A stretch of DNA of 21,723 nt from a virus: the UHGV virus genome UHGV-1576676, one strand, 5' to 3'. The position numbers and the translations under genes are program-made. Shown in pieces: positions 20,278 through 21,625 of this stretch. The notes beneath the pieces were generated by a model. That model made no database searches. It saw only the letters and a program-made list of their open reading frames with translations, and was not told the origin of the DNA. Numbering within the stretch: the stretch's first letter is position 1; each line of letters starts with the position of its first letter.

Positions 20278-20740
20278 GGGTTTTCGTCATGGTTAGCGAC
20301 TTTGCGGCGGTTTAGAAACTGACCATTAAAGTAAATGCAAACGATGATCTGATGATGGTAGCGGCCTAAGAAGCCAGATGCCACGGGGTATGAGTCGTCC
20401 CCCGTCAAAAAATCGACCGCAGAGTGTCCCCGTCTGTGTATTAGGGAACGGGGAGGCACAACAGGTAAGGGCGCTGGTGTGATTAACCAGATGAACGAGA
20501 AGGGGCCATCTGTTGGTCAGCGTCCTTTCCTGTTGCGTCTTCTTTTCAGCGTAACAGCGGTGCTTAACAGCACTTTGGGTACAGTTCCACGAATTTACGG
20601 GTATATCCCGTCATGCTGAAAGCGCTAATCACGCTGGAAGCCAGGGTTATGCATCCCCTGTTACCGAATTGCAGCCAGGGCGCGGTGCGCCGAAAAGCAT
20701 ACGGAGGTGGAAGCCCTCGCCGGAGACGTACCCGGCAAGT

Positions 20741-20816
20741 GATGGTGTAGCTCAGCGGTTAGAGCGGTTGACTGTTAATCAACGGGTCGATGGTTCAAAT
20801 CCATCCACCATCGCCA
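20741..20816 (+). tRNA. tRNA-Asn (anticodon GTT), CCA encoded
   Basis: Hand-folded cloverleaf: acceptor gatggtg/caccatc, D-arm gctc...gagc, anticodon arm gttga-ctGTTaa-tcaac, T-arm gatgg-ttcaaat-ccatc, discriminator g, CCA. Confidence 0.9.
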
Positions 20817-20818
20817 AT

Positions 20819-20894
20819 GCCGGTTTAGCTCAGTTGGTAGAGCGCCTGCCTTGTAAGCAGGATGTCAGCGGTTCGAGTCCGTTAACCGGCACCA
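20819..20894 (+). tRNA. tRNA-Thr (anticodon TGT), CCA encoded
   Basis: Acceptor gccggtt/aaccggc, anticodon arm cctgc-ctTGTaa-gcagg, T-arm agcgg-ttcgagt-ccgtt, discriminator a, CCA; starts 2 nt after tRNA-Asn. Confidence 0.9.
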
Positions 20895-21625
20895 ACACAA
20901 CAGGTAAGAGCATTTGTAGAGTTCGACTCTCTACCGTGGGCTTTTTCCCGCGATGCGAGCCATAAATGCTCTTACCGTTGTGATGAAGTGCAGCTCTTAG
21001 AAGCAACCAGAAGATAAGCATCTGGCTTCACAACATAAACCGCAGGAACGACCAATAAACGGTAGTCCGTATGGAGAACACCCCGTTGAGGAAGAGGCCT
21101 GGCCGGAACCGTAACCGGCACTACAACGTTGAGAACATTGGCGTAACGGGGTCATATCCCAATCTATGAATAAATGTTGCGTTGCCGCGTGACAACCAGT
21201 GTTCTCAACATTGTGGTGAATGCACAGGCTGATGTGCCGCAACTACAGTAGTGCGCGCTTTGCGGGGCTTGCTACAACCCTGTGTCGGAGTTCAGCACCG
21301 ACCATCACTGTTTGATTCTCTGGCATGAGCATAACGCTGAAATAAGTCCAGTCTGGTGCGGCCCGATCACCCGCCGTTAGCTCCACGAAACGGAGCACGT
21401 AACAGGTAAGAGCATTCTCCTGTAACGGGTTCATATCCCAATCTACAGGTCCACCAGGAATGCTCTTTCCGTTGCGGTGAATGCGGCTAAGCGCACGCGG
21501 GGAAATGGTTATATCTGTCCATTATTTCTCCTTATTTCCCCGTCCACGGTGGATAACCAGCTAAAGGACACCGGGAAGCACCCGGCACCGCAACCTTATT
21601 TCCCAACCAGTAATGAGGTTAATAA

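Follow-up and report, generated by a model that had tools for sequence, protein, structure and literature searches.

The described systems closest to the element reported here are hairpins processed by ribonuclease III (RNase III). The intervening sequences (IVS) of enterobacterial 23S rRNA are extended stem-loops that are excised by this enzyme. In the metY-nusA-infB operon RNase III cleavage is said to release a tRNA, and in the dicB operon RNase III reportedly processes DicF, as the titles of the respective studies have it. For phage lambda, a 1988 study by Daniels, Subbarao, Blattner and Lozeron (Virology 167:568) reportedly deals, to go by its title, with RNase III processing sites in the Q-dependent late transcript. 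Here we describe four long hairpin modules (H1 to H4) on a 21,723-nt stretch of viral DNA, the UHGV virus genome UHGV-1576676, the whole of which is referred to as the window. By its sequence the window is a P1-like phage-plasmid: positions 20050–21723, which hold the modules, are 97.1% identical to positions 68658–70330 of phage P1 (NC_005856), a stretch that is annotated in P1 as the leader of the C1-repressed ban operon. As judged from sequence comparisons, the modules are members of one widespread leader family of temperate phages, with hundreds of copies in Enterobacterales.

An earlier note on this DNA, made without database searches, had pointed to four long hairpins here, with stems of 14–20 bp and common flanks, and had taken them for structured RNAs or protein-binding sites not explained by any open reading frame (ORF). 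Its positions are borne out by the thermodynamic folding that it had suggested as a check. With RNAfold, minimum free energies of −39.3 kcal/mol (z −4.6) for H1 (20456–20542), −43.1 kcal/mol (z −6.4) for H2 (20895–20992), −45.4 kcal/mol (z −4.4) for H3 (21118–21232) and −34.7 kcal/mol (z −4.7) for H4 (21398–21488) were obtained, and none of 200 shuffles of any module was as stable. The stems are longer than had been supposed, with outer helices of 20, 29, 22 and 21 bp in H1 to H4, respectively. The 5' flank described for three modules corresponds to the motif ACAGGTAAGRGC, which occurs exactly three times in the window (20461, 20900 and 21402), at the 5' base of H1, H2 and H4. The common 3' flank was likewise found, as the block CC..TGCTCTT(A/T)CCGTTG(T/C)G(A/G)TGAA in H2, H3 and H4 (20960–20987, 21193–21220 and 21454–21481). 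A loop block shared by two modules is present in the apical part, hereafter called cargo, of H3 and H4 (21143–21166 and 21422–21445, 96% identical), where it measures 24 nt and not 18. H3 is otherwise the divergent member, with a compensatory GUUGAG/CUCAAC in place of GGUAAG/CUUUCC and without the bulged A, and the cargo of H2 contains a T-arm-like hairpin, AGAG-UUCGACU-CUCU. The small hairpins listed in the note at about 20600, 21100 and 21381 are all there (Table 1). It was also right in excluding a CRISPR array, as the repeats are inverted hairpin arms at irregular spacings of 233–502 nt and form no direct-repeat/spacer array, and in stating that the modules do not fold as tRNAs. No ARAGORN call and no match to the Rfam families tRNA (RF00005) or YrlA (RF02553) was obtained on any module, even at E ≤ 10, and an identity as tRNA or YrlA was rejected on these grounds. 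The search of RNA family databases that it had proposed gave no Rfam 15 family for the modules: both at the gathering threshold and at E ≤ 10, only chance matches to microRNA precursors were seen, with 17–26 bits. What the note had missed is that the hairpins belong to a large family which includes phage lambda, that a conserved stem in them carries an exchangeable apex, and that further conserved RNA units lie between them.

The search for the flank motifs in relatives, also suggested there, showed that the modules recur across temperate phages of Enterobacterales. Scanning IMG/VR with the exact pattern AACAGGTAAG N40-70 CTTWCCGTTG gave at least 120 loci and at least 137 instances with at least 79 distinct cores. 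A covariance model (CM R1; 95 positions, 19 pairs) trained on 48 sequences had 250 matches, antisense shadows included, in 100 viral loci, and arrays of two to five modules are present in many of these loci. Within the window the model built on the family finds exactly four sites, with 43–65 bits on the plus strand and 20–43 bits antisense, scores that are partly circular for these four sites since they are among the 48 training sequences; the next-best match elsewhere in the window has 11 bits (E = 0.2).

The consensus of the family is (G)CACAAC-A-GGUAAGAGCAUUG [cargo] CAGUGCUCUUUCC-GUUGUG-GUGAAUG, with a basal stem of 19 bp, and this stem is proven by covariation. Among 48 distinct members 94.1% of the stem cells are paired, nine pairs are changed on both sides and 42 cells are compensated; in a set of 108 distinct members aligned with the CM the figures are 94.8%, 11 pairs and 118 cells. 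None of 500 shuffles reaches this level in either set, and controls with slid arms are 37–60% paired. The outer helix has a median of 20 bp, with 47 of the 48 members within 17–29 bp. Irregularities of the helix are conserved as well: a bulged A is constant, and 80 of the 108 members have a non-standard pair at one position (consensus U.U). U.G is the commonest pair at one stem position (75/108), and the three outer base pairs are often U.G or G.U. Because such U.G pairs would be A.C mismatches on the opposite strand, and because sense scores of the CM exceed antisense ones by 16–45 bits, it follows that the modules act as plus-strand RNA. The claim of structured RNAs or protein-binding sites outside any ORF thus stands for the most part, the covarying stems and strand-specific U.G pairs showing that the modules act as RNA. 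The stem is near-invariant across phages of Enterobacteriaceae, Yersiniaceae, Pectobacteriaceae and Erwiniaceae. The functional part is this constant 19-bp double-stranded stem of about two turns, and the apex is a replaceable cassette.

Replacement of the cargo is seen most directly at the site after tRNA-Thr, where one basal stem carries three unrelated apices: that of the window, that of P1, D6 and SJ46, and that of P7 and Ro157. Between the P1 relatives these cargos are 43–57% identical, which is the random level, and their flanks are 99–100% identical, except for a tRNA-Tyr insertion upstream in Ro157; the cargo thus appears to be exchanged as a discrete cassette. JL22 has two modules of this site in tandem, in SJ46 H3 and H4 are fused through their common 24-nt block, and H4 of Ro157 lacks exactly GGGTTCATATCCC. 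In total there are at least 48 cargo families, unrelated to each other and about 29–84 nt in length, and the H2 cargo of the window is also found in lambda-like late leaders (loci L022 and L034). As a set the cargos are no more structured than shuffles (mean z −0.56; 6% below −2), and no motif is common to all 48. The most enriched hexamer is GTTCGA, present in 9 of the 48 cargos against a shuffle maximum of 7, and a T-loop-like hairpin occurs in 8 of the 48, H2 of the window among them. The window cargos are no more complementary to other parts of the window than expected by chance. A host rRNA or tmRNA (transfer-messenger RNA) origin of the cargos was considered and found not to be general, the single resemblance being to 16S rRNA, in one interior family of the neighbouring unit named domain 2 below.

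The family extends to phage lambda, where a member lies at 44787–44862, about 8 nt past the U-tract of tR' and between tR' and gene S. Both lambda GenBank records leave this position without annotation, and a search of the late leader of lambda against Rfam gives no match even with a limit of E ≤ 1. Several other loci have lambda 6S RNA and tR' as their upstream context. Lambdoid modules are located either between Q/tR' and the lysis genes or downstream of a cI-like repressor, and in one locus (L082) the Rfam family IsrJ is directly upstream of the module. Across the loci, a module starts 2–4 nt past a tRNA CCA end, a small hairpin (e.g. GCUCC-ACGAAAC-GGAGC or CCUCG-GAAGAGA-CGAGG) or a terminator U-tract, and is placed between structured units within polycistronic leaders. 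In the inspected loci (70 of 120 inspected) the modules have the orientation of the adjoining tRNAs, and in the contexts inspected that of the flanking operons. A BLAST search of 5,426 complete E. coli genomes found the lambda-type module in at least 448 and the P1-type in at least 577 of them, and these are minimum figures, since a match by BLAST depends on the cargo. When one genome of each species was scanned, 111 stretches (113 pattern matches) were obtained. Of these, 65 are chance matches whose arms do not pair (about 67 are expected by chance, by our own arithmetic), and a further 21 are identical to lambda and lie in unrelated taxa, often on tiny contigs or contigs of about 1x coverage. 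The latter, which include loci L142, L143, L157, L160, L164, L176, L177, L184, L185, L192, L193, L200, L213 and L215 and taxa such as Psychrobacter, Algoriphagus, Bradyrhizobium, Oceanobacillus and Enterococcus, are most likely due to contamination of public assemblies with lambda control DNA. Both groups were removed before the host range was read. The remaining stretches are all from Enterobacterales, i.e. Escherichia, Klebsiella, Citrobacter, Enterobacter, Kluyvera, Serratia, Rahnella, Rouxiella, Pectobacterium, Pantoea, Erwinia and others. The cryptic prophages Qin and DLP12 of K-12 carry no module, so that the published K-12 RNase III maps cannot be used for the modules. A literature search with module sequence strings returned nothing relevant, and as far as these tools show the family is undescribed, with neither an Rfam family nor a RefSeq annotation.

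Table 1. Positions of the hairpin modules and neighbouring features in the window.
Feature	Position	Strand	Remarks
Intrinsic terminator-like hairpin and U-tract	20249–20275	+	terminator scan; end of the P1 'dicF-like region'
tmRNA-like block	20281–20457	+	directly upstream of H1
H1	20454–20543	+	stem CACAAC-A-GGUAAGGGCGCUG / CAGCGUCCUUUCC-U-GUUGCG; 46-nt cargo; CM R1 43.1 bits (+) vs 26.6 (−)
Small hairpin ACGGG-UAUAU-CCCGU	20597–20611	+	in conserved block between H1 and tRNA-Asn
tRNA-Asn(GUU)	20741–20816	+	ARAGORN; Rfam tRNA (74.5 and 74.9 bits for the pair with tRNA-Thr)
tRNA-Thr(UGU)	20819–20894	+	ARAGORN; Rfam tRNA (scores as for tRNA-Asn)
H2	20893–20988	+	starts 4 nt past the CCA end of tRNA-Thr; CM 64.8 bits
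Small hairpin	21102–21119	–	listed in the earlier note
H3 (divergent member)	21119–21221	+	CM 48.3 bits; 23-nt arms 87% complementary
Domain 2	21212–21308	+	constant frames, variable interior; 5' end overlaps 3' base of H3
Small hairpin GCUCC-ACGAAAC-GGAGC	21380–21396	+	1–3 nt before H4; within conserved block X (about 21309–21397)
H4	21395–21482	+	CM 64.2 bits (+) vs 19.7 (−)
STnc100-like leader	21473–21592	+	upstream of tciA (ATG at 21626); Rfam STnc100 33.4 bits (gathering score 47), E = 4e-5

The annotated order in P1 over this region is the end of dmt, the promoters P1ban and P2ban with the operator Oban (Op72), the 'dicF-like region', trnA (Asn), trnT (Thr), plp and upl on the opposite strand, tciA, tciB and tciC, trnI, and ban. 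With the features of Table 1 included, the order on the transcript is Pban, the dicF-like terminator, the tmRNA-like block, H1, tRNA-Asn, tRNA-Thr, H2, H3, domain 2, H4, tciABC, tRNA-Ile and ban. The two tRNAs of the window sit between H1 and H2, and H1 to H4 point the same way as the Pban promoter and operator annotated in P1, the tRNAs and tciA. Comparison of window positions 20183–20284 and 21473–21592 with positions 2300–2680 of locus L011 indicates that the ban leader is homologous to the dicF-dicB region of lambdoid prophages, with a shared plan of a dicF-like segment with terminator and an STnc100-like leader, tciA standing where dicB would be. The P1 ban leader resembles the leader of a dicB operon that has received modules and tRNAs between its two parts, because the spacer between dicF and dicB in lambdoid prophages, which holds no module, is homologous to the 3' flank of H4 and to the STnc100-like leader. 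For the latter, a sequence match to such a spacer was obtained in an E. coli prophage. The only Rfam families that pass the gathering threshold in the window are tRNA, sok, C4 and c4-a1b1. The tRNA content of this region varies among relatives: Ro157c2YLVW (L003) has an additional tRNA-Tyr between Asn and Thr, and in D6 (L004) and P7 (L005) a tRNA-Ser(UGA) is followed directly by an H4-type module, a tRNA that is not annotated in the P7 record.

Directly upstream of H1, the tmRNA-like block contains a tag-like frame without start codon (20337–20369), GCA AAC GAU GAU CUG AUG AUG GUA GCG GCC UAA, which translates to ANDDLMMVAA*. The SsrA tag of E. coli is ANDENYALAA. Eight such 10-codon tags were found in phage leaders (ANDDLMMVAA in the window, ANDDLMMAAA, ANDDLMLMAA, ANDEQFLAVA, ANDDLMLAAA, ANDNLMMVAA, ANEEMYLAVA and ANDDVVLMAA), all of the form AN(D/E)... 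and ending in a small hydrophobic tripeptide (VAA, AAA, MAA or AVA) before the stop. In most phages carrying the tag block, in lambdoid as well as other leaders, a module follows about 85–90 nt past the tag stop. On the 3' side of the stop there is an H-type pseudoknot, with a stem 20384–20388/20400–20404 and a loop (20394–20397) that pairs with 20414–20417. In the alignment 96% of its cells are paired and all four pseudoknot pairs are changed on both sides (CCAG/CUGG, CCGA/UCGG, CCAA/UUGG, GUCG/CGAC), which none of 500 shuffles reached. A further hairpin is formed at 20426–20457. The Rfam model tmRNA_permuted has a sub-threshold match of 24.1 bits (E = 0.017) at 20264–20369; ARAGORN finds no tmRNA here and the Rfam tmRNA models score 14–24 bits against gathering scores of 47–84. 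The label 'tmRNA-like' goes no further because a tRNA-like domain with an alanine-identity acceptor stem (G3.U70), a T-arm and a CCA end was not found by ARAGORN, by Rfam or by eye, and by these comparisons the block is not a recognisable tmRNA. A full-text literature search for such an element in P1 or lambdoid phages, whether tmRNA-like or a tmRNA encoded by the phage, found none described.

A second frame with variable interior, domain 2, follows H3. In it, a closing helix and a pair of conserved hairpins frame a hypervariable interior, in the layout UGUGGUG ... GCACA-GGCUGA-UGUGC ... variable ... GUCGG-AGUUCAGCA-CCGAC-CAUCAC. Its constant frames are UGUGGUGAAUGCGCAGGCUGAUGCGC on the 5' side and GCCGGAG(A/U)UCAGCACCGGCCACCACAAC on the 3' side, and 18 distinct interiors were found between them across the loci. 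By eye, compensatory variants are seen in its three helices, with GUGGUG/CACCAC, GUGAUG/CAUCAC and, in lambda, GUGCUG/CAGCAC, and further with GCCGG/CCGGC, GUCGG/CCGAC and GCAGG/CCUGC. Rfam has no tRNA match on domain 2. In some phages its position is occupied, from GTTG|TGG onwards, by a true tRNA (Arg-UCU, Gly) or by a tRNA-like element with a GGTTCGA T-arm. The interiors of loci L058, L066, L067 and L071 resemble positions ~254–282 of 16S rRNA (e.g. GGTGGGGTAATGGCTCACCATGGCGACGA, 26 of 29 nt), and the variants within this family are compensatory, like those among bacterial 16S sequences. The small hairpin preceding H4 also precedes modules in many unrelated phage loci, and the block between H1 and tRNA-Asn, with ..ACGGGTATATCCCGT..GTTACCGAATTGC.., is found upstream of modules in L014 and L093 as well. 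A perfect long-range pairing of 12 nt (20370–20381/21018–21029) was dropped, as it shows no covariation, is lost in P7 and is weakened in others.

The window contains further recognisable features of a P1-like element. The bifunctional methyltransferase gene dmt, which is a single gene of 754 aa in P1, is represented in the window (17805–20068) by two ORFs, 17805–19595 (596 aa) and 19616–20068 (150 aa, TTG start), so that a stop or frameshift apparently separates its cytosine- and adenine-methylase parts. Rfam identifies the immunity RNAs of P1 (c4-a1b1 targets at 1050–1102, C4 antisense RNA at 1171–1256) and a sok antitoxin RNA at 4570–4744 (114 bits), which points to a hok/sok-type locus.

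A function of the modules is probable in view of this analysis, and the reading for which most can be said, and to which we give about an even chance, is that they are RNase III-type processing or punctuation hairpins in the untranslated ban leader. To the structure, strand, conservation, family membership and operon position reported above, this reading adds cleavage by RNase III and its consequences, which we infer. Cuts by the host enzyme in the long stem of each module would separate the tRNAs, the adjacent structured units and the mRNA that follows. They would also fix the 5' and 3' termini of each fragment and its stability, and would free the apex as a small RNA. The reading is based on the constrained feature being a duplex of about two turns, which matches the valley of RNase III that accommodates ~22 bp of double-stranded RNA (PMC6212723), and on the location of the modules at the junctions between tRNAs, structured units and mRNA. 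With H1 to H4 at 20–29 bp and a family median of 20, the stems fit the substrate need of about two turns (~20–22 bp). The metY and dicB operons are direct precedents, and the ban leader is homologous to a dicB-operon leader. Also in favour of the reading, the lambda module at 44787–44862 lies in the transcript of Daniels et al. and may coincide with the sites mapped there. Several points weigh against this explanation. The sequence specificity of RNase III is weak, which leaves the near-identical stem, the fixed bulged A and the U.U mismatch unexplained, and a pure processing site needs no sizeable apex, yet an apex has been retained in at least 48 unrelated versions. SJ46 tolerates the H3/H4 fusion, which destroys both stems. 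Moreover, any function of the modules is accessory, since SJ46 tolerates the fusion and since interference by CRISPRi in this region scores as non-essential (PMC10695390).

The strict stem and the cassette-like apex exceed what RNase III needs, which leaves room for a role of the cargo or for a sequence-specific binding factor. In the former case the stem would be a handle that presents a variable apical RNA selected as a decoy, a mimic (e.g. of the tRNA elbow) or a regulator, and this RNA would be freed from the leader to manipulate the host RNA machinery or to counter RNA-targeting defences. We regard this as unlikely, albeit worth considering given the many unrelated cargo families in one constant frame, their cassette-like replacement between almost unchanged flanks, the occurrence of the same cargo in P1-like and lambda-like phages, and the enrichment of GTTCGA and of T-loop-like hairpins. 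The surroundings point the same way, as the modules adjoin real tRNA genes, a block with a tmRNA tag-like frame and a second frame with variable interior, of which one family resembles 16S rRNA (26/29 nt). The cargo set is however not above shuffles in structure and has no common motif, 40 of the 48 cargos show no recognisable mimicry, the complementarity of the window cargos within the window is at chance, and the small RNA product is putative. By extension, the stem scaffolds, the tmRNA tag-like block and domain 2 could together be an array of exchangeable mimics of host stable RNAs released by processing, a possibility that we put forward tentatively. If it were true, some of the short cargos that the phages carry and exchange would mimic the tRNA elbow, the array would disturb the quality control of translation in the host or act against toxins or defences that target RNA, and lambda and P1 would carry an unrecognised class of modular non-coding RNA. 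The other way of accounting for the strict stem, which we consider doubtful, is that a sequence-specific RNA-binding factor other than RNase III, possibly a conserved host protein, recognises the bulged A, the U.U mismatch and the GGUAAG/CUUUCC box, with a role in stability, antitermination or localisation. This would agree with the near-invariance of the stem across phages of four families of Enterobacterales, with the conserved irregularities of the helix and with the position of modules just downstream of terminators subject to read-through by antitermination (tR' in lambda). It agrees less well with H3, which has the compensatory GUUGAG/CUCAAC instead of the GGUAAG box and no bulge, and no candidate protein is known, P1, lambdoid and SSU5-like phages sharing no obvious phage-encoded partner.

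Explanations outside such a role of the RNA were also weighed. The modules resemble DNA elements in being inverted repeats with a variable centre, AAC...GTT ends and an extrahelical base, and attC-like recombination sites or a miniature inverted-repeat transposable element (MITE) could drive the gain and loss of cassettes around the tRNAs; the cassette-wise replacement of cargos and the whole-unit differences between relatives (the tandem in JL22, the fusion in SJ46, the extra tRNA-Tyr and tRNA-Ser) would fit. Homologous recombination between the repeated arms explains the unit changes equally well, though, and we hold a DNA-level element to be very unlikely in the light of U.G pairs that would be A.C mismatches on the other strand, the co-orientation of every inspected module with transcription, and the lack of further CM copies in the other 20 kb of the window. 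The ends GCACAAC/GTTGTGG also deviate from the attC consensus RYYYAAC/GTTRRRY, no integrase is annotated beside the modules in P1 (within 4.7 kb) or lambda (within 1.3 kb), and no target-site duplications are evident. To our knowledge there is no integron integrase in P1 or lambda. In contrast to what defines ERIC-type elements and MITEs, copies were seen in phage operon leaders and, in the contexts inspected, always co-oriented with the adjoining genes or tRNAs. A relation to GcvB has a very slight probability in our estimation. Processed arms would here titrate GcvB, as the prophage anti-sRNA (anti-small RNA) AgvB does; the 5' arm holds the exact R1 target consensus CACAACA, and prophage anti-sRNAs are located in the same 'moron' region downstream of PR' (consensus and region from PMC4104026). 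The 3' arm and flank of H2 (20962–20985), CUUACCGUUGUGAUGAAGUG, can also be compared with the R1 seed region of E. coli gcvB (L133, 349–376), CUUACGGUUGUGAUGUUGUG, to which it is identical at 17 of 20 positions. A helix of high stability nevertheless sequesters the motif, H2 resembles GcvB more closely than the family consensus (CUUUCCGUUGUGGUGAAU) does, Rfam gives no match to AgvB or GcvB at E ≤ 10, and complementarity between CA-rich and GU-rich sequences may be coincidence.

There remains the possibility that the hairpins are incidental to genes on the minus strand. The earlier note had named coding sequence in relatives as what would speak against the modules, and on the strand opposite H2–H4 (window 20830–21434, minus strand) the P1 GenBank record does place two genes, plp (125 aa) and upl (63 aa), which formally is such a case; neither ORF survives inspection. 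In the window plp is split by two in-frame stops into ORFs of 81 and 63 aa, and a tblastn search with the P1 protein finds the frame interrupted by stops in the window and in Ro157c2YLVW (one), and broken into fragments in P7 and JL22. The C-terminus of Plp (..LLCWCRLTDSNR) corresponds to tRNA-Thr translated in antisense. The window has an intact upl ORF, but Upl has no match in P7, D6 or SJ46, and neither protein has a Pfam domain. Among the rows listed of the 577 matching E. coli genomes (almost all P1-like plasmids), RefSeq has no feature under H4 and the downstream leader. In a CRISPRi screen plp, upl and trnT were scored as non-essential (PMC10695390). Sequence change in the modules tracks base-pairing and not codons, and with the stops and fragments of plp and the lack of Upl matches and Pfam domains this led us to reject the coding explanation, whose chance of being correct is minimal; plp and upl are probably annotation artefacts and are not credible as genes.

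Although few genomes have been studied as thoroughly as those of P1 and lambda, several hundred bases in their operon leaders are made up of conserved and covarying RNA modules that are absent from database annotation. The definition of the family corrects the plp/upl labelling of P1, and the CM enables the element to be found in phages of Enterobacterales. It also lends the RNase III observation of 1988 in the lambda late leader a concrete structure. Should temperate phages encode exchangeable mimics of stable RNAs, this would bear on the conflict between phage and host over tRNAs and trans-translation. Some lambdoid hybrids and phage Mu depend on trans-translation.

Among known systems, the RNase III sites of the lambda late leader studied by Daniels et al. 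are nearest, as the lambda module lies between tR' and S within the same Q-dependent transcript; the module family, its variable cargo and its occurrence in P1 beside tRNAs are apparently undescribed. The early R sites of T7, metY-rimP-nusA-infB and dicB/DicF are comparable in that long imperfect hairpins stand between the units of one transcript, and more closely so in the case of metY, where the site is just downstream of a tRNA which it releases, and of T7, whose sites form a paralogous family sharing sequence. The modules differ from these punctuation hairpins in a stem that is conserved nearly to the base in very different phages and in a large and exchangeable apex, and cleavage of the modules is inferred. 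With the IVS of enterobacterial 23S rRNA they have in common a conserved lower stem and a variable upper part, but no sequence relationship is seen and the modules occur in phage mRNA/tRNA leaders, not in rRNA. In Y RNA and YrlA, too, the 5' and 3' ends pair into a long stem in which a protein-binding segment is conserved, and this stem is combined with a variable distal module able to mimic tRNA, and H2 shows the same order of stem, T-arm-like hairpin, second hairpin and stem. The sole Rfam match to YrlA (23.9 bits) is however over the true tRNAs, and a T-loop-like hairpin is found in only 8 of the 48 cargos. We know of no link of the modules to Ro/Rsr. Integron attC sites are likewise imperfect palindromes between cassettes, with ..AAC/GTT.. 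ends, an extrahelical base and a variable centre, from which the modules are distinguished by their ends, (G/A)CACAAC / GTTG(T/C)G(G/A), by RNA-type strand-specific pairing and by a fixed orientation. AgvB and AsxR (Tree et al. 2014, PMC4104026) originate from the same lambdoid region downstream of PR' and have a constant and a variable part, AgvB also containing CACAACA, whereas they are Hfq-binding sRNAs of 51–60 nt, each with a promoter and a terminator of its own, that vary at the 5' end, and the Rfam families AgvB and AsxR are not matched here. Compared with these systems, what is new is an unannotated family of what is probably a known sort, that of structured processing elements in phage operon leaders.

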